64,000 bases of DNA from Candidatus Poribacteria bacterium (GTDB taxonomy: Bacteria; Poribacteria; WGA-4E; WGA-3G): assembly GCA_965242965.1 (NCBI GenBank), contig OZ251518.1, forward strand, positions 4,736,001 through 4,800,000, in the 5' to 3' direction. The notes under the pieces are model-generated. The model searched no databases, was not told where the DNA came from, and worked only from the letters and a program-made list of their open reading frames with translations. Shown here one piece after another: positions 7,119 through 14,916 of this stretch (positions within the stretch are counted from its first letter, which is position 1; each line of letters opens with the position of its first letter). The position numbers and the translations under genes were made by a program.

Positions 7119-8909
7119 TCATCTACCATTGACATACCGAACCAAACTCGCGAGTGTCACCCTCCCTCGGTTTGGGTGACTGGTACGGCTATCCGGCAGG
7201 CTTCCGTTCGCGTTGTCCGGCTCGCCTCCATCTTCGTTATCTGACAGGCTTCCGTTCGCGTTGTCCGGCTCGCCTCCGTCTTCGTTATCCGGCGGGCTTC
7301 CGTTCGCGTTGTCCGGCTCGCCTTCATCTTCGTTGTCTGGCGGGCTTCCGTTCGCATTGCCAGACTCGCCTCCGTTCTCGTCAACATTCTTGTCAACGAG
7401 GCAGAGATCTGCATCCCAACTATCGTCTCTCAAGAACGATGTCTCGCAGTGGACGAGCATCGCGCCGAAGACTTCCATGAGAATAGCGGAGCCGACAGGC
7501 CCTAGCCGATCGCCACCGCCTTGGACACCTGCCTCACGCATCAGGTAAAGAAAGAGCGGCGTGTGCTTTGCGAGGTCGCCCTGCAATTCCTTGTCAATGC
7601 CGTTCCATCCCGGAATGTTATTGAACTCCAGGTCTTGCGCGGAATCAATGCCGTATGCTTTTGGCAGTGCCTTCGCGACTTTTTGCCCACTTGGCAATCC
7701 CAACACATACCCTCGGAGGAGGTTTCGGAAGGCCAATGACCTGTCGTTTTGTGGCGAATTCCGCCCAACAACCGGATCTGGCAGGCGAACCAATTCATCT
7801 GCCAGCAGATGGTCAATCGCTTTCGACTTCGCGTAAGGATGACACTTCTTGACGTTCAAAAGGAACCGCCAATCCACGGTGAGTTCCGGCGGCACTTGTG
7901 CGAAGCCGAGGGTGCCGAAGCGTTCGTCAAATATCTCAATCGCCGGATAATCCGCGTTGACCGGATACTGAGAACGCACCATGGAATGCCCAAAGCGATA
8001 GGCAGCGGCGGCAAACTCAACCGGCATGATGAGGTGGCGATCATCGCAAAACAATGCGTTGAAGCAAGAGGACTCCTCCTTTTCGTCTTTGGATTCAGTC
8101 TCGCCTTCTGTGGCGGCTCCTGAATTTTCGTCAGGCTTGGGGTCATCCGCCTTTTTCGCATTTTCCTCGGCGTTGAGTTCTGCCGCGCAGTTCTCAATCC
8201 GTTTCACAGCGACCTCATAAATCGCTGTATCACAGATGCGATTCAAGAAGTCGTAGAGCACAATGGCTTGGTAGTGGTACCTCGCCTCTTTTTGCGCTGC
8301 CTCAAAACTCCGTCCGATGAGCAGACGGTTATGAAAGCGCAAGAACAGCAGGTGCAGCTGTGAAAGGAAGAGGTTTTCGTCGTTGCGCGGATCGCCGAGC
8401 AACGCATGCCCATCCGCGCGGCGCGGCACATCGCTCGGATTCTCAACGCCGTTAACCTGACTGCCAACAAGCAGCCGCCCCCGTTGGCTTGGGTCATACA
8501 GATGCGGCGACACATCAGGCCCGAATCCATAGACAGCATCCAGGTCAAGGGAGGCAGACCGGAGATTCGGCAGTTTTTTCACTGCTGCCTTGTCCAATGC
8601 TTTCCCATGGAGTTTGCTGCCAGCATCCAGCGTGATATCGTGATCCACGAACTGCGCGAAGAACGTGTAGGCAGCGGGAATCTCACTGTTACCGGAAGCA
8701 TCCTCGGCATCGTGCATGATCCCGCCCGGTCCGCCGAGCAGGGCTGCAATCTCCTCCGCCTGATTTTGGTCGATTTCCACGCCGGCTGCCTCTGCCATGT
8801 CGTATGCCCATGTTGGTAAATCCGGGAATAACCTGCCGAAATTCCCAAGGCGGAGATGGGCACAGCCAATGGGCATGGAAGTTCCATGCATGGATTTTTT
8901 GTTATTCAT
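7119..8909 (-). CDS. Heme peroxidase, peroxidase-cyclooxygenase (animal-type) superfamily
   Basis: FAQFVDHDIT, GDPRNDEN, RFHN, AAYRFGHS, TPLFLYLMREA motifs. Confidence 0.85.
   Translation of the reverse strand: MNNKKSMHGTSMPIGCAHLRLGNFGRLFPDLPTWAYDMAEAAGVEIDQNQAEEIAALLGGPGGIMHDAEDASGNSEIPAAYTFFAQFVDHDITLDAGSKLHGKALDKAAVKKLPNLRSASLDLDAVYGFGPDVSPHLYDPSQRGRLLVGSQVNGVENPSDVPRRADGHALLGDPRNDENLFLSQLHLLFLRFHNRLLIGRSFEAAQKEARYHYQAIVLYDFLNRICDTAIYEVAVKRIENCAAELNAEENAKKADDPKPDENSGAATEGETESKDEKEESSCFNALFCDDRHLIMPVEFAAAAYRFGHSMVRSQYPVNADYPAIEIFDERFGTLGFAQVPPELTVDWRFLLNVKKCHPYAKSKAIDHLLADELVRLPDPVVGRNSPQNDRSLAFRNLLRGYVLGLPSGQKVAKALPKAYGIDSAQDLEFNNIPGWNGIDKELQGDLAKHTPLFLYLMREAGVQGGGDRLGPVGSAILMEVFGAMLVHCETSFLRDDSWDADLCLVDKNVDENGGESGNANGSPPDNEDEGEPDNANGSPPDNEDGGEPDNANGSLSDNEDGGEPDNANGSLPDSRTSHPNRGRVTLASLVRYVNGR
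7195..7380 (-). repeat. 48-bp in-frame tandem repeat, ~4 copies (GEPDNANGSPPDNEDG)
   Basis: CAGGCTTCCG at 7197 and 7245, period 48. Confidence 0.9.
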
Positions 8910-9109
8910 TGTTTTTCCTTCCTTCAGTCAATTGCGAGAGTTTTCTCTCGGTGTTATAAAACATGCGATCCGATTATGAGAAAACTTCTCCTTGCTTGCG
9001 CGGGGCAAGCGGTTTATGATAGGATTAACGCGTAGCGAGGGCGGAGTTTTCATCTCTCCCTCGCGTTGCGTTGGCTGTGGATGGGCTCGTGTGCCCACCC
9101 GGGACTGAG

Positions 9110-9295
9110 GATGTCTGAATCAGGATTTGCAAGATTCTAGGATTTCCAAGATGAGGGTTGCTTGTCATCGTAGACCCTCTGTCGCGGTAGGAACGATTTC
9201 CCTGATTGCGATTGCTACGAGGGTTAGCCTTGGCTAAGCGATGCGCTCCCAATCCTGTAAATCCTATAATCTTGTGAATCCTGATTCAGACAGTT
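9110..9295. repeat. Inverted pair of GTCTGAATCAGGATT/AATCCTGATTCAGAC repeats flanking a REP
   Basis: Same architecture as 6912-7090. Confidence 0.8.
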
Positions 9296-9456
9296 AATTG
9301 CAAATCGTCACCAGACAACGTGTCTGGGGTTACGGCGGGAGGTTGCAGGTGCTTTTCCGCAGTGCAGGGCCTCCCGTAAACGTGGAAACGTTCCAAAATT
9401 CGCGCGTAGTGAATACGCACTGAAAAGATTGAAATCGGTTAGGCCCTTTCAATCTC
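9296..9456 (-). other. Hairpin-dense 3' trailer of the orphan ORF
   Basis: Minus-strand stems AGATTGAAA/TTTCAATCT, GTGCGTA/TACGCGC, TGGAA/TTCCA, CGGGAGG/CCTCCCG, CCAGACA/TGTCTGG. Confidence 0.55.
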
Positions 9457-10245
9457 CTATTCTGTGAAATTCAAATCAAAGAAACGAGGCTCTTGGCCAT
9501 GAGTTCCGGGTACCAACGTGTGAGCATGACGCGCAATCTGCTCAAAAGCCTCGTAGGTAATTTCAAACTCACTGTGCACTGCAAAGTATGCCTCATCTAA
9601 CTCGTACAATCTTGGCTTTTCGCCTCTCACGGCGAGAGAGTCAAAAATGTAACCGTAAAGCGAGAAATCGTCTTCTCTTTGAAGTTCCTCGATATAGAGG
9701 GTGAACCGATTCACCCCTTCCGCGCATTCTCTCGCTAGCCTCTCAAGGCGATCAAAACACGCAAGAATAACTTGAGCCGGGGCCAGGTTGTCCTCGCAGA
9801 TGGCACGGAATGCTTCAAAAGCGAATGCCATATAGTCCCTGCTAACATGCTGGTCTATAAGATCTCGGTGAAGATCTCTATCGGTAGCAGCATCAACGAA
9901 AGCTCGGCTATAATCTGCTCGCAACTTGCCATCTAGCCATTGGCGAGTGTCGCGAAAGTCGTTTGCCACATTTACCCACGCCACGTTGGCCTCTGTTGAA
10001 TGAGCCAAGGTTTGGACGAAATGGGGATGTTGACTTTCTCGGTTGCGGAGACTTGCAGCGTAAGCGGTTTTAAGGGATACGCTAGCGTTTAGAGTCACGA
10101 GCTTGGTTTCAACGATCGATTTGCCAAGTTTGGCCAAACGAAACTCTGCCTCCGGATCGTATTTGACTTGAGCACCGGTCAAATTAATCACATTCACGAT
10201 GTAACCGGGAATAGATGTTAAAACGGCGGTGCAAAGAGTTATCAT
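9457..10245 (-). CDS. Orphan hypothetical protein, 262 aa
   Basis: Long ORF with AGGAG RBS 10 nt upstream; no family recognised; codon usage looks more A/T-ending than neighbours. Confidence 0.7.
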   Translation of the reverse strand: MITLCTAVLTSIPGYIVNVINLTGAQVKYDPEAEFRLAKLGKSIVETKLVTLNASVSLKTAYAASLRNRESQHPHFVQTLAHSTEANVAWVNVANDFRDTRQWLDGKLRADYSRAFVDAATDRDLHRDLIDQHVSRDYMAFAFEAFRAICEDNLAPAQVILACFDRLERLARECAEGVNRFTLYIEELQREDDFSLYGYIFDSLAVRGEKPRLYELDEAYFAVHSEFEITYEAFEQIARHAHTLVPGTHGQEPRFFDLNFTE

Positions 10246-10857
10246 GGATCTTTATCTCCTAACTGATTTTTCTGCGTAACATTCCATCAGAAGCGTTACC
10301 CAGAATCAGGTTAAAAACACCTGCCACCATCAGGTTGCTATCCCGTTACCCCCATCCCCTCGGTTCGCCCACACCATCAAAAATGCGCGAAGATAGTAAC
10401 CTGCACCGCCAAAAACGGCGCGCGGAAACTTATCACGCAGGCAAGAGTGGACAAATAGGGAAAATAAAACGGAAACGGTTGCAACCGAAGTGGCAGGGAA
10501 AACATGCACCGGGACCAAATTCCCGATGCAACGAAAATAACCCGCCACGCAAAGAATGCGTGCGGGATCGAAGACAACAAGACGACGAAAGTCGCCGCTG
10601 TCAAGTGAATAAACTTTGCTTAACGCCTGTGGGTGTCGGGGGGGGTCGAGCCTCCCCTCTGGGCATTAAGGTGAACGGGAACTCGTCGTGACGGCGCGAC
10701 AACGGGCATAGACGCACGGCAAGCGTGCATCTCTCGGTGCCCAAGCAGGTCTACGGTGACCTCGGTAGCAATGGAAAAAACAATTCGCTGGTTCACGGTA
10801 TCGTTCCTCTGTTCGGTTTCGCGGTGGCGCGTTTTTTTCGCGCGTATCACCACGTTT
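10246..10857 (-). ncRNA. Candidate ~600-nt structured RNA or 5' leader
   Basis: Downstream of three consensus promoters; many helices whose G-U wobbles mostly form only on the minus strand. Confidence 0.6.
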
Positions 10858-10863
10858 GCATTA

Positions 10864-11037
10864 ATGATACATGAAAATGCAATAAATGTCAAACATTTTT
10901 CGCGAAAAATCGTGGAAATGTTCACAATTAACCACATTCTATAGGAATTTCGGTTTTTTGTCAACGTTTTTCTACGAAAAATCGCCAAAAATGTTTAAAA
11001 CTGAGTCTATTTTAGCAAATGTCGCGTTTTTTGTCAA
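10864..11037 (-). promoter_or_regulatory. Three tandem sigma70 promoters
   Basis: TTGACA(10892-87)-17-TATCAT; TTGACA(10964-59)-17-TAGAAT; TTGACA(11037-32)-17-TAAAAT. Confidence 0.85.
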
Positions 11038-11089
11038 GGTTATTTCGCGAAAAAAACGCTGTTATTTCGCGAAAAAAACGCTGCTGCTA

Positions 11090-11565
11090 CCGTAGCGCGG
11101 GGGCCTGTCCCCCGCGATCTACCGACCTAAACGAAAACCGTCCGCAGCCCAGAGACTACGAACGGTTTCTGTGACAATCTAGGCACGGCGAGGGACAGGC
11201 CCTCGCCCTACGGTGCTCGGCGCGGTTTTCTACGTTTCACCGTAGCGCGGGGGCCTGTCCCCCGCGATCTACCGACCTAAACGAAAACCGTCCGCAGCCC
11301 AGAGGCCACGAACGGTTTCTGTGACGAACGAGGCACGGCGAGGGACAGGCCCTCGCCCTACGGGTCGGCGGCACGGTTTGGATAGCCAGAAAATAAAACG
11401 CACATTAAGGTCTTACAGACCTAAAGAGACGTTTCCGCGCAATAAAAACCTCTAATCCTGCTAATCTTGAAAATCTTGGAAATCCTGCTCATATTCGGCG
11501 AGGGACAGGCCCTCGCCCTACGGGAACCCCTGAACGCATCGAGACCAGGAGGTCTCTCCTACGGG
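11090..11565. repeat. REPIN cluster
   Basis: Two near-identical inverted REP pairs (11091-11212, 11241-11362), similar to 3820-3970. Confidence 0.9.
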
Positions 11566-11577
11566 GGAAGGAGGATA

Positions 11578-13020
11578 TCAAAATTCTCTCTTAATCCCAA
11601 ACATCACTGACGTTTTATGAATCGGTTCAAATCCCGTTTCAACGCGACGGAAGCGGTATTCTCGGAGGATAATCGTCTCTAGCGGCGGATAAATCGCATA
11701 GCGGAGCTCTACGCTGAACGCTGACTTTTCATCCAAGTCAAACAGATCTCCGAAGAAGTTGGTATCTCCACCTTCGCCGATGTCTCGCTTGGTATAGAAC
11801 GCCCGCGCAGATAACCGCGGGACTACCCCCGATTCCGTGATACCGATATAGAGTTTCGGCTCGCCATCGGTGTAATCCTCAAACGTGCCTAAAAAATAGA
11901 ATTGCGGCAACGGCTGCCAGATCAGTTGCGAAAAATAGCCGCGTCGCGCAGCGGTGTCCGTATCCGCGCCTAAAAACTGCGGCACATTTGTCCTCGGCAA
12001 ACCTATCTTCGCCGATTCATAAGTATAATCAAACACGGAAGGAATGTATCCATCGCTGAAGAGGCGGTATTCAAGTTTGAAAACGGCTTGCGTCCACGCA
12101 AACCCTACGCCGACAGCATTTCCCCACGTGAGTCTCGTTCCTCCGGTAGGAGAGACCTCCTGGTCTCGATTCCCCCCAGTAGGAGAGACCTCCTGGTCTC
12201 GATTAAGAGAAACCCCCCGGTCTCGATTAGGCGCATCCTCCCGATCTCGATTTTCGCCTGTATTCAAAAAAACGACATCGTCATACACATTCAACCGAAA
12301 CGTGCCGGTCTCGAAAATCGGAAACCCGACATCAGCCCCCAGCGCGATGAGTGGTTCCTCGCCAATTTCCTGCACATTCGCATCGATGTCGGTAAGATAG
12401 GTAGCACCTACTTCAAATCGGGTGAAGAGACTGTTATTTTCGGCGCGTTGAAAGGGCCGGAAAAACGCGCGTCCGCCAAAGATTGTCGGCGCGCCAATAT
12501 CGTTGAGCATCGTCTCAACGCCGTATCGGTTGTCGGAACTTCTGAGGTTTAGCTGCACGCCGCGCCTATCGTAGTTGGAATAGCCGGACATGATCGAACC
12601 GTGCCCAATGGTCAGATAGTCCAATTCCCCGAAACGGAAATGGAACGGCTCATTCGGTTGTCCATAACGGATATAGCGGATGAGCCGCAGCCACGTGCTA
12701 GGATTATTCCAATCTTCGGCATCTTCGGCGAGGAATCGGGGTTCATCGGTTTCAGCGAACGGATTGTAAAGCACCACCAAGTCCAATCCGAGTCCGAGTG
12801 CGCCGATGGGGATATCGGGTTGCAGCTGAATCTGAAGGAACGGATTGCTGTCAATAAAGGTTAGGCCGCCCCCATCTAAACCGCCTTTTGCGAAGGGACG
12901 TGTTTCTACCGCGCCCGTTAGCAATTCCTCTTCCTCCATCGGCGCATCTTGTGCGTAAATGTGAGCGGCGAGCGCGAAAATCAGAACGCCAATCGCAACC
13001 CATTTCTTCGTTTTCCTCAT
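11578..13020 (-). CDS. Hypothetical exported/outer-membrane beta-rich protein with in-frame REP insertion
   Basis: Signal peptide, C-terminal F, LRYIRYGQP...RFGEL segment; start overlaps the ABC ATPase stop. Confidence 0.75.
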   Translation of the reverse strand: MRKTKKWVAIGVLIFALAAHIYAQDAPMEEEELLTGAVETRPFAKGGLDGGGLTFIDSNPFLQIQLQPDIPIGALGLGLDLVVLYNPFAETDEPRFLAEDAEDWNNPSTWLRLIRYIRYGQPNEPFHFRFGELDYLTIGHGSIMSGYSNYDRRGVQLNLRSSDNRYGVETMLNDIGAPTIFGGRAFFRPFQRAENNSLFTRFEVGATYLTDIDANVQEIGEEPLIALGADVGFPIFETGTFRLNVYDDVVFLNTGENRDREDAPNRDRGVSLNRDQEVSPTGGNRDQEVSPTGGTRLTWGNAVGVGFAWTQAVFKLEYRLFSDGYIPSVFDYTYESAKIGLPRTNVPQFLGADTDTAARRGYFSQLIWQPLPQFYFLGTFEDYTDGEPKLYIGITESGVVPRLSARAFYTKRDIGEGGDTNFFGDLFDLDEKSAFSVELRYAIYPPLETIILREYRFRRVETGFEPIHKTSVMFGIKREF

Positions 13021-13772
13021 GCGACAATCCTTCCGTCTTTCATGTGGATAACCCGGTCTGCGTTCGCCTTCAACCCTTCGTGGTGTGTCACGATGGCGAT
13101 GGTAGTCTGGTGTTCTTGGCGCAGTTCTTGGATGAGATTCATCAGGTTATCGCTTTGGCGGCTGTCAAGGTTCGCGGTGGGTTCATCGGCGAAGATGATT
13201 TTCGGACGGTTGGCGAGGGCGCGCGCAAAAGAGACGCGCTGTTTCTCGCCGCCAGACAACTGCGCAGGCCGGTGATGGAAGCGTTCTGCTAACCCGACTT
13301 GCGTTAACAATTCTTGTGCGCGGTTCGCGGCTTCCTCGGTGTTTGTTCGCGCAATGTCCATCGCAACCATCACGTTTTCTAGTGCGGTGAGGTAGGGCAA
13401 AAGATGGAACAGTTGGAAGACAAACCCGATTTTCTCGCGGCGGATTTGGCTCATGTCGTGTCGGGAGGGGAATCGAGACCGGGAGGTCTCTCCTACGGGG
13501 CCGGAGGGATCCCCTGCCGAGGGGAGTCGAGACCGGGAGGTCTCTCCTACCGAGGAGATGGTTTCACCATCAATGCGGAGTTCGCCTTCATCAGGCGTTA
13601 AGATACAGCCGAGGAGGCTAATCAGCGTCGTCTTGCCGCAGCCGCTGTCGCCCATAATCATCACCAATTCGCTTGCTTGAATAGTGATGTCCACCGAATC
13701 AATCGCAACGACGGTGGCATCACCGGTGCCGAAGCGTTTGGTTAAGTTTGTGCCTTCTACGATTGCCGCCAT
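13017..13772 (-). CDS. LolD/MacB-type ABC transporter ATP-binding protein with in-frame REP insertion
   Basis: GDSGCGKTT, IGFVFQ, LSGGEKQR, ADEPTANLD. Confidence 0.9.
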   Translation of the reverse strand: MAAIVEGTNLTKRFGTGDATVVAIDSVDITIQASELVMIMGDSGCGKTTLISLLGCILTPDEGELRIDGETISSVGETSRSRLPSAGDPSGPVGETSRSRFPSRHDMSQIRREKIGFVFQLFHLLPYLTALENVMVAMDIARTNTEEAANRAQELLTQVGLAERFHHRPAQLSGGEKQRVSFARALANRPKIIFADEPTANLDSRQSDNLMNLIQELRQEHQTTIAIVTHHEGLKANADRVIHMKDGRIVA

Positions 13773-13785
13773 TATGTTTTCCTCA

Positions 13786-14916
13786 CTAGAGCTCACCCCT
13801 GAACGCTATCATCGGATCGACGGTGATTGCCTTCCGTGCCGCTAAATAGCCGCTCAGGCAGCACACAATCAGACTAATCCCTGCCACGATGAGCGATTCC
13901 ACAAAGTGAATTGCGACGAAAATCGGGGCTGCCGCCGCGAAAAGATATGCCAGAACCAGGCCGCACAAAACGCCGCTCACCGAGATCAGCGCGACCTGCT
14001 TCAGGAGCAGGGACATCACGTATCCGTTTGACGCGCCGATCGCTTTCAGCACGCCGATCTCCTGCGTCTTCTCAAGCATCGTGACGTAGGTAATCATGCC
14101 GACGAGAAGTCCCGCCGCCAGCCAAAGCATGACGCGCAGGAATTGCACCGCTTTCATCGGTTCATTGACATAATACTCGATGATGTCTCCGAGTGTCTGT
14201 TTCAAAGTGCGCGCCTCAATGGTCTCAAGCGAATCCAAATCGGAGGCGAGTTGCGATGCGGGTTGATTTTCGGTTGTTTTAGCAATCATCATGTTGACAT
14301 GCGGCGAATTGCCGAGCAACACTTTCTGCGCGATGCGGACATCCGTGAAGAGCAGCGGCGTATCCAAAACGAACATCAGACTTTTCGCCTTGCCGACTAC
14401 CCGCAGTTTCTCGTTGCCGATGGAAATCTGTTCGCCGATTTCCAGTCCCATCTTTTCGTCAACAACCACCTCAAACGGTGCCTGGTCTTCGGGACGATAG
14501 TCGTCGAACTGGCTCGGCGTGAACAGTCTCCCCTCAATCACCCGCTTCGGGCCGCCGAGTTTTCCCAATTTATAGCCGACGATGATTGCTTTCGTCGATT
14601 TCCCTCGGACCGTTGGGCGCGCCTGCGCGAAAACCAGCGGCGAAGCAGAATCCGGCACTAAGCCAGGTGACGAATTTAACCACGCCATGTATTCCTCAAT
14701 GACGAGGGAGAACCCGATGAAGGCACCGCCAGAACCTTCGGCGGAAATCCAGACGTTAGCACCGGTGGATTCCACGTATTGCCGCGCTTGGATACGCATG
14801 CCGTTCATGATGCCGCCCAATAATAGAATGAGCGACATCAGCACGGTGATGCCGAGTGCTGTCAGCACGACGCGTGCCCGGCGGTATCGCATGTCTTTAA
14901 GGAATAAGGTTTTCAT
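13786..14916 (-). CDS. MacB/FtsX-type ABC transporter permease
   Basis: N-terminal TM, periplasmic domain, EIGVLKAIGAS, C-terminal TMs; alternative start at 14937. Confidence 0.9.
   Translation of the reverse strand: MKTLFLKDMRYRRARVVLTALGITVLMSLILLLGGIMNGMRIQARQYVESTGANVWISAEGSGGAFIGFSLVIEEYMAWLNSSPGLVPDSASPLVFAQARPTVRGKSTKAIIVGYKLGKLGGPKRVIEGRLFTPSQFDDYRPEDQAPFEVVVDEKMGLEIGEQISIGNEKLRVVGKAKSLMFVLDTPLLFTDVRIAQKVLLGNSPHVNMMIAKTTENQPASQLASDLDSLETIEARTLKQTLGDIIEYYVNEPMKAVQFLRVMLWLAAGLLVGMITYVTMLEKTQEIGVLKAIGASNGYVMSLLLKQVALISVSGVLCGLVLAYLFAAAAPIFVAIHFVESLIVAGISLIVCCLSGYLAARKAITVDPMIAFRGEL

Follow-up and report, generated by a model that had tools for sequence, protein, structure and literature searches.

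Dispersed intergenic repeats can supply genes with expression signals: the Correia elements of Neisseria and the enterobacterial repetitive intergenic consensus (ERIC) sequences are promoter-bearing miniature repeats that donate promoters and RNA hairpins, and elements of this type are 100-160 nucleotides (nt) long and have terminal inverted repeats and target duplications. In leader attenuators such as those of trp and his, or the proline-codon leaders of Salmonella mgtA and mgtCBR, a short translated open reading frame (ORF) lies upstream of the genes; the known cases are single-locus elements, each belonging to one pathway, in which alternative terminator and antiterminator structures can be demonstrated. 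A survey of putative mobile promoters by Nijveen, Matus-Garcia and van Passel (2012; PMC3575422) describes highly similar upstream non-coding sequences before non-homologous genes of one genome, found with 100-nt windows (-150 to -50) at an identity of at least 80%; most of its families are pairs, some carry RNA regulatory motifs, and the authors did not know how they move. Here we analyse 64,000 nt of a Candidatus Poribacteria bacterium (GenBank assembly GCA_965242965.1, contig OZ251518.1, positions 4,736,001 to 4,800,000 of the forward strand; hereafter the window), in which the minus-strand region 9296-11090 is, judging from its sequence, probably one copy of a propagated, lineage-specific and cis-acting cassette of promoters and leader, which we call the module.

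The promoter-leader part of the region has 25 DNA matches in its own genome (G000; 5.70 Mb in 2 contigs). Using BLAST and nhmmer, we delimited 17 full and 2 partial cores together with weaker fragments; identity is 77-90% and holds over about 570-770 nt, and each copy has two to four promoter units. Strong BLAST similarity ends after a hairpin at unit position ~594 (587-642) in 12 of 16 copies, and weaker nhmmer similarity reaches positions 733-833, at most about 20 nt from the start codon, in 12 of 17. The alignment of this distal part contains a conserved hairpin with a U-run, and the hairpin adjoining the ribosome-binding site (RBS) is kept as well, its sequences being quite different. Among 60 relatives, BLAST detected the module in the two remaining genomes of the genus (G001 and G002) and in one genome of a sister genus (G004), with one weak 38-nt match elsewhere and no module in 56 further relatives. 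A covariance model of domain 1 (143 positions) matched 20 times in G000, 9 times in G001, 7 times in G002 and twice in G004, and had no match in 57 other genomes of the family, 55 of which are at least 90% complete. The pattern of the conserved hairpin H-B (see the list below) occurred in 11 stretches of the species collection, seven of them in Poribacteria-titled records and the other four being single matches in other phyla, about the number expected by chance; a metagenome scan for further copies returned 2 loci only. Across the sequences compared, the module is thus shown to be restricted to two genera. Neither an empty site nor an insertion polymorphism turned up for it (copy number 20/9/7/2 in the four genomes), and its upstream neighbour in G002 is not syntenic. 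Among assembled contigs, one of 1049 nt (9372-10420) was identical in runs X2, X3 and X4, and the module stretch was covered by many short contigs (1123 records in X2), as expected because a repeat of this kind collapses in assembly; run X1 contributed two short, uninformative fragments of 90-95% likeness.

Behind 16 of the 17 full copies, a co-oriented ORF of at least 100 amino acids (aa) with a Shine-Dalgarno (SD)-like motif starts 67-308 nt past the core, and none of these 16 core-to-ORF spacers contains a promoter-like site at the scanner threshold. In the seventeenth copy (2502k), the first such ORF does not begin before 1.8 kb. Because the cargo genes are co-oriented and lack promoter-like sites of their own, we read the module as their promoter and 5′ leader. 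Their products fall into different Pfam families and include a Big_5 lipoprotein, a C92 amidase, dockerin proteins, TPR proteins, a tyrosinase, an FRG+TPR protein, a trypsin-like peptidase, a cohesin protein with a type IX secretion system tail, a PG_binding_3 protein and an FGE-sulfatase; the FRG+TPR cargo matches the PADLOC candidate family PDC-S15. Paralogous cargo occurs in two copy pairs, 1635k/1826k and 2613k/3293k. In the latter pair (G000:C1:2613079 and 3293938; loci L041 and L045) the order is module, tyrosinase (Pfam E 1.5e-36), 218-aa ORF and haem peroxidase, and in the window it is module, 262-aa ORF, repeat and haem peroxidase. A copy in G002 precedes a tyrosinase gene that itself lies upstream of a peroxidase gene, and in G004 a two-promoter copy with hairpin T stands directly upstream of a haem-peroxidase homologue. 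Because the link between the module and tyrosinase/peroxidase genes recurs in G000, G002 and G004, the association is older than the genus. From these sequences, we conclude that the module is not a single RNA-protein machine but probably an expression and control cassette that the genome uses repeatedly, with cargo that consists mostly of secreted-protein genes.

The haem peroxidase of the window is an animal-haem-peroxidase homologue (Pfam E 1.2e-13) of 596 aa, its homologues behind other module copies being 551-571 aa long, and at its C-terminus (7119-7350, minus strand) it ends in three or more tandem acidic repeats ('GEPDNANGSPPDNEDG').

In the order of transcription, the window copy consists of the following features.

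11083-11039, minus strand: 22-nt direct repeat, two copies, with a TTTCGCGAAA palindrome; the duplication is local to the window copy
11037-11009, minus strand: promoter P1, TTGACA-17-TAAAAT, 11/12 by sigma70 site scan, with TG before the -10 hexamer
10964-10936, minus strand: promoter P2, TTGACA-17-TAGAAT, 11/12 by the same scan
10892-10864, minus strand: promoter P3, TTGACA-17-TATCAT, 11/12 by the same scan
10865-10491, minus strand: 375-nt core, the most conserved part of the leader, with 101 proposed pairs
10854-10820, minus strand: 5′ stem-loop just past P3 (GGUG..CGCG / CGCG..CACC), four pairs of which are changed on both sides
10796-10620, minus strand: upstream ORF (uORF), GAGGAAC followed by GTG, 58 codons and TAA
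10645-10638, minus strand: poly-C tract, 8 C here and ~7-13 elsewhere, present in 29/29 copies, with predicted pairing to an upstream G-rich run
10602-10573, minus strand: hairpin H-A, which begins 17 nt past the uORF stop
10566-10531, minus strand: hairpin H-B, terminator-like, 10 pairs, 99.7% of cells paired, U-rich tail UUAUUUUCGU
10530-10495, minus strand: hairpin T, terminator-like, 10 pairs, tail UGUUUUCC, kept in the sister-genus copy
10490-10262, minus strand: distal leader, pyrimidine-rich and A-poor, weakly conserved in 12/17 copies
10335-10319, minus strand: third hairpin with U-run, within the distal leader
10309-10263, minus strand: hairpin adjoining the RBS, ending 2 nt before AGGAG
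10260-10256, minus strand: AGGAG, RBS of the 262-aa ORF, whose ATG is at 10245
10245-9457, minus strand: 262-aa cargo ORF, with ATG and AGGAG RBS
9406-9296, minus strand: 3′ module, two hairpins without U-run

The original prediction, made from the sequence alone, had described three consensus sigma70 promoters, about 600 nt of densely paired leader, a long hairpin abutting AGGAG, an orphan 262-aa ORF and back-to-back hairpins at the 3′ end, in a REP-free unit (REP, repetitive extragenic palindromic) with host repeats on both sides. All of the promoter, leader, RBS-hairpin, ORF and 3′-hairpin features lie on the minus strand at the positions first noted, each promoter matches 11/12, the gap between hairpin and AGGAG is 2 nt, and the repeats and their absence from the unit were found as described (see below). 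The leader had also been said to hold no recognisable gene, but it contains the conserved 58-codon ORF at 10796-10620.

P1 to P3 are spaced by 73 and 72 bp and embedded in a stretch of 38% G+C. At a threshold of at least 9/12, the 2.9-kb region contains 5 promoter-like sites versus 2.6 ± 1.6 in shuffles. The three ~73-nt promoter units are identical at 42-51 positions per 76-77 alignment columns, and the element CGATTTTTCG(C/T)(G/A)GAAA precedes the -35 hexamer in each of them; because of this identity and the common upstream element, we regard the units as old tandem copies. The 16S gene of the same genome is preceded by a perfect TTGACA-17-TATAAT and its rRNA ends in CACCTCCTTTCT, which makes E. 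coli-type promoter and Shine-Dalgarno rules reasonable here. The module promoters are as near to the consensus as the genome's own rRNA promoter. The 14-nt word GCGTTTTTTTCGCG (10829-10842), in the loop region of the 5′ stem-loop, has its perfect complement at 11046-11059 and 11068-11081, within the 22-nt repeats upstream of P1.

The leader between 10857 and 10246 has a predicted folding energy of -240.8 kcal/mol compared with -202.2 ± 6.4 in 20 shuffles (z = -6.06). We aligned 29 cores, 17 from the own genome and 12 from relatives (454 columns, 71% mean identity). The core opens with the 5′ stem-loop, after which comes a ~150-nt domain of several helices that an invariant GGAAC/GUUCC helix closes off. 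Next is a stem that has the uORF stop within it and surrounds a G-rich run together with the invariant poly-C tract, and the hairpins H-A, H-B and T stand last; H-B and T have U-rich tails in all 29 aligned copies, that of T being UGUUUUCC or UUUCCC. Of the 73 pairs that RNAalifold proposed, 17 show compensatory changes. For a pair-count test, we took the structure from the window's own fold (101 pairs in 20 helices) and counted it on the alignment of the 29 cores. The results showed 91.2% of 2892 cells paired, versus 32-45% with partners slid; 21 of the 101 pairs were changed on both sides, versus 12.8 ± 2.2 in shuffled alignments (0/500 reached the observed number), and the covariation score was 0.141, versus 0.103 shuffled and 0.03-0.055 slid. 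We conclude, with moderate support from these comparisons, that the core fold is conserved. The copies in the genus and sister genus, with their compensatory pair changes, thus bear out the expectation that the leader would be conserved and covary in relatives. Rfam 15 gave no match at the gathering score anywhere in the 64-kb window, the best sub-threshold hit within 9100-11300 reaching 22.4 of the 60 bits set as its gathering score, and ARAGORN found neither tRNA nor transfer-messenger RNA, in line with what had been predicted. Known classes of ribozyme, riboswitch and large non-coding RNA were set aside for want of an Rfam match. A 'Poribacteria-1' RNA motif has also been described, although no paper turned up under that name in full text; should Rfam 15 include this motif, the module did not match it either. 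The poly-C tract was also considered as a phase-variation switch and rejected: the contigs contain no length variant at a 10% threshold, although rare variants could escape contigs.

The same conservation profile raises the alternative that each copy is a self-contained multicopy RNA gene of ~300-350 nt that ends at H-B/T and acts in trans or with a dual function, the cargo being reached by leakage. Conservation is indeed strongest from P1 to hairpin T, with the BLAST matches ending at 587-642 in 12/16 copies; two consecutive U-tailed hairpins occur in 29/29, the structured RNA is free of Rfam matches and shows covariation, and an abundant RNA would be well served by the three rRNA-grade promoters of a copy. 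This is countered by the co-oriented gene found at 67-308 nt in 16/17 copies, behind a spacer without a promoter-like site, and by the weaker homology that continues to the RBS in 12/17; co-orientation could, for its part, also come from selection against strong convergent transcription. On balance, we consider such an RNA gene unlikely and retain the promoter and leader of a downstream gene as the preferred reading.

The uORF start is conserved in 29/29 copies as GAGGAAC, followed after 7-10 nt by GTG in 24 copies and by ATG in the other 5. In 27 of the 29 the frame runs for 52-65 codons without a stop; of the remaining two copies, one has a +1 insertion that shortens its frame to 43 codons and one extends to 102. 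Six of 8 indel events in the alignment are multiples of three, and stop-creating variants number 1 versus 4.2 expected in the uORF frame, compared with 4 versus 5.6 and 11 versus 7.8 in the other two. The ratio of nonsynonymous to synonymous polymorphism (pN/pS) is 0.86 versus 0.92 and 0.82 in the other frames, so we see no constraint at the level of the peptide. Codon-position diversity is nearly flat (0.195/0.218/0.250), nucleotide conservation past the stop is equal or stronger, and the peptide has no Pfam or NCBIfam match. The poly-C tract encodes Pro-Pro(-Pro) 5-8 codons before the stop and, by analogy with ribosome stalling at polyproline, is a possible stalling site. It looks from the alignment as if the frame is maintained and the peptide is not, which would fit a regulatory uORF; the pattern is also compatible with chance together with constraint on the RNA.

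Much of this could instead describe a multicopy gene for a small (~58 aa) basic protein, with the leader as its mRNA. The conserved SD-like GAGGAAC and [AG]TG, the frame open in 27/29 copies, the indels that are mostly multiples of three and the shortage of stop-creating variants (1 versus 4.2) would all be expected of such a gene, and gene callers have called the ORF in 80 metagenome clusters, at 31-102 aa. The pN/pS of 0.86 versus 0.92/0.82, however, gives no sign of purifying selection, the codon-position signal is weak, no protein family is matched, and conservation is as strong or stronger past the stop; the 21 longer forms that were called result only from extension of the frame, upstream or past the poly-C tract, for which reason a larger protein containing the uORF peptide was rejected too. 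A protein-coding origin of the leader is accordingly very improbable in our estimation. A second long ORF in frame past the uORF stop ('LTAATFVV...'), with a pN/pS of 0.71 versus 0.92 and 0.84, was judged an artefact of the A-poor composition, since overlapping frames are open too.

Both sides of the unit are bounded by repeats.

11089-11370, no strand assigned: REP-like palindromic repeats, 150-nt period, 1.9 copies, at the 5′ end of the module
9112-9292, no strand assigned: miniature inverted-repeat transposable element (MITE)-like element of 181 nt, with 41-nt inverted ends that are 88% complementary, at the 3′ side of the unit

Fifteen of the 18 aligned module copies of the own genome begin directly after a REP-like hairpin. 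The REP core GGGACAGGCCC or its complement occurs 50 times in the window, five of these at 11101-11502 just upstream of the module, and not at all within 9296-11090. On each strand of the 5.66-Mb contig it has ~2,260 occurrences, with ~4,500 genome-wide, and the palindromes are frequently in 150-nt tandem or inverted arrangements. The 3′ hairpin module is present at 6 loci of the genome, and at 5 of them it lies 1.8-2.5 kb downstream of a 5′ module with differing cargo between; the succession of 5′ module, cargo and 3′ module gives the family a cassette-like look. A minimal copy of ~300 nt (G000:C1:2676316-2676622; locus L042) has one consensus promoter fused to the 3′ hairpin module, along with a short pair of inverted ends, and stands directly upstream of a 283-aa ORF with a signal peptide, the N-terminus of which resembles, by eye, the cohesin cargo of copy 5266k. 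The ends of the MITE-like element start with TGTCTGAATCAGGAT, a word of which each strand of the genome has 23-24 occurrences, frequently next to module copies or their 3′ hairpin module. Small repeats also seem to have been inserted in frame into coding genes at 11578-13796: the 480-aa protein at 11578-13020 (minus strand) contains 'NRDQEVSPTGG' twice, with complementary frames reading 'RDREVSPTG', and the 259-aa ORF at 13017-13796 (minus strand), ATPase-like by eye, contains 'GETSRSR' twice.

These repeats bear on the question of whether the module is a selfish or neutral non-autonomous mobile repeat that happens to carry promoters, with an RNA structure of no regulatory role. Copy number varies widely among close genomes (20/9/7/2), most copies are flush with an abundant REP-like hairpin (core ~4,500 in the genome), and the 5′ module, cargo and 3′ module follow each other at 5 loci, with one short fused copy besides. 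Against this, the module lacks terminal inverted repeats, contains no transposase or recombinase gene and matches nothing in the phage, plasmid and viral collections. Its helices are preserved by compensatory changes, orientation is biased in 16/17 copies, and copies in different genera are associated with the same gene family. We therefore regard a mobile repeat without regulatory role as improbable. One possibility is that the cis-acting module spread by recombination at the REP-like repeats, most copies starting flush with a REP-like hairpin.

The 262-aa ORF of the window copy is a real gene without an evident tie to the RNA. It has seven homologue clusters in metagenomes, with identities of 43-92% and many invariant residues; one cluster measures 337 aa and the other six 255-263 aa. 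The protein could be matched to no known family. The best Pfam match has an E of 0.041 and is not significant; NCBIfam and PADLOC gave no match, and the ESM Atlas no usable one. AlphaFold2, using an 8-row alignment, modelled an all-alpha protein of long helices with a mean predicted local distance difference test score (pLDDT) of 80.8 and a predicted template modelling score (pTM) of 0.77. Foldseek found no PDB match at E ≤ 0.001, the best being YaxB (E 0.19, template modelling score, TM, 0.28), and its top rows are helical-bundle proteins with TM of about 0.3. As the similarity is not significant, a pore-forming-toxin-like fold was rejected, and a role as defence-system cargo was dropped because PADLOC gave no match.

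The original prediction had joined this protein to the leader as a single abundant large non-coding RNA with a cognate protein (a ribonucleoprotein) or, alternatively, a domesticated RNA-replicon-like element. Strong promoters, dense structure and an unannotated protein do lie in one unit here. Yet the promoter-leader occurs about 20 times before unrelated genes, whereas the protein was found behind the window's copy only and in none of the 60 related genomes, and the unit contains neither a polymerase nor a reverse transcriptase gene and has no phage, plasmid or viral match. In our view, the copy-number and cargo data refute both forms of that reading, to which we assign hardly any remaining probability: the protein is cargo and not the partner of the RNA. 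Its conserved, structured leader behind rRNA-grade promoters stands, as a member of a repeat family and not as a single RNA-protein system. Neither the Rfam search nor the structural comparison turned up the known RNA family or the ordinary enzyme that would have told against the original prediction.

For the promoter-leader module, we propose that each copy provides its downstream gene with 2-4 tandem near-consensus sigma70 promoters and a structured leader. Transcription would start at P1 to P3, and the regulatory decision would fall mostly in the leader, where the tandem hairpins H-B and T would stop or pause a large share of the transcripts. The two conserved terminator-like hairpins and the third one downstream suggest termination or pausing of most transcripts there, with read-through as the step under regulation. 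Read-through into the cargo could depend on a condition sensed through the ~150-nt domain, through translation of the Pro-Pro codons of the uORF, or through both, and the hairpin adjoining the RBS would stabilise or gate the mRNA. A specific conditional-termination step in the leader is a tentative proposal drawn from these hairpins, and it is a similarly tentative possibility, to our mind, that the 375-nt core represents a new class of large cis-regulatory RNA, that is an attenuator that senses a ligand, a protein or translation.

Several observations weigh against this interpretation. The chance expectation for the 16 spacers is ~1.5 promoter-like sites, so that finding none is weak on its own. 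Some copies have only a short U-tail, UUUCCC in the case of T. We found no conserved alternative helix that could serve as antiterminator after masking the 3′ arms of H-B, T or both, and the two hairpins behave as independent local stems. Because the tested structure derives from the window's own fold, the share of paired cells is inflated; many of the 101 pairs never vary, and because the copies are kin by descent, the shuffle control overstates significance. The copies may owe part of their high nucleotide identity to gene conversion or recent spread and not to function. Conservation of the SD-like GGAAC of the uORF is no proof of translation, because it is also an arm of the invariant helix.

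If the module works as proposed, a regulon has been assembled in an uncultured symbiont lineage from copies of a ready-made promoter and leader set before unrelated genes, in an unusually large and clear case of such propagation. Among the cargo, the oxidative enzymes, proteases, cohesin/dockerin and TPR proteins plausibly act on the host matrix. A new cis-regulatory class, should it be borne out, would set ~20 secreted or host-interaction genes of sponge-associated Poribacteria under one signal behind promoters of rRNA strength, and its dispersal in the genome would have been that of a portable 'regulon-building' cassette. As proposed, the module would also contribute a structured RNA of about 350 nt that is new to Rfam and already has 29 aligned examples. 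The module probably marks highly expressed, co-regulated accessory genes in Poribacteria and, given the predicted strength of its promoters, may offer natural strong promoters for a phylum without genetic tools.

How does the module compare with the systems described above? Unlike Correia- and ERIC-type elements, it is 4-6 times longer and has no terminal inverted repeats: no inverted pair spans its ends, and the only element with such repeats is the separate one at 9112-9292. As in attenuators, the leader has a short ORF with start signals and Pro-Pro codons, followed by U-tailed hairpins; in contrast to them, the uORF is 52-65 codons long, the module precedes ~20 unrelated genes, and no antiterminator alternative was found. 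With rrn operons the module shares several near-consensus tandem promoters and A/T-rich upstream elements, whereas the rrn operon of this genome has one perfect promoter-like site within ~180 nt upstream of its 16S gene. The leader of that operon contains GTTGTTCTTTGAAAG, which we take to be boxA-like from the consensus; the module has no boxA-like motif, and the longest word that the two leaders share is the 9-mer CTTGACAAA, in the promoter. An rrn-derived leader was therefore rejected, as only CTTGACAAA is shared, a boxA-like motif is lacking and no module lies near the 16S gene. Listings and opening lines of abstracts on Poribacteria non-coding RNA and on metatranscriptomes or highly expressed genes contain no description of the module. 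Like the putative mobile promoters, as defined in that survey (PMC3575422), the module is homologous non-coding sequence upstream of non-paralogous genes. It differs from the families described there in its length of 600-830 nt, its ~20 copies, its 2-4 tandem promoters, its covarying 375-nt structure, its uORF and its terminator-like hairpins, and is thus an extreme and more elaborate case of promoter reuse.

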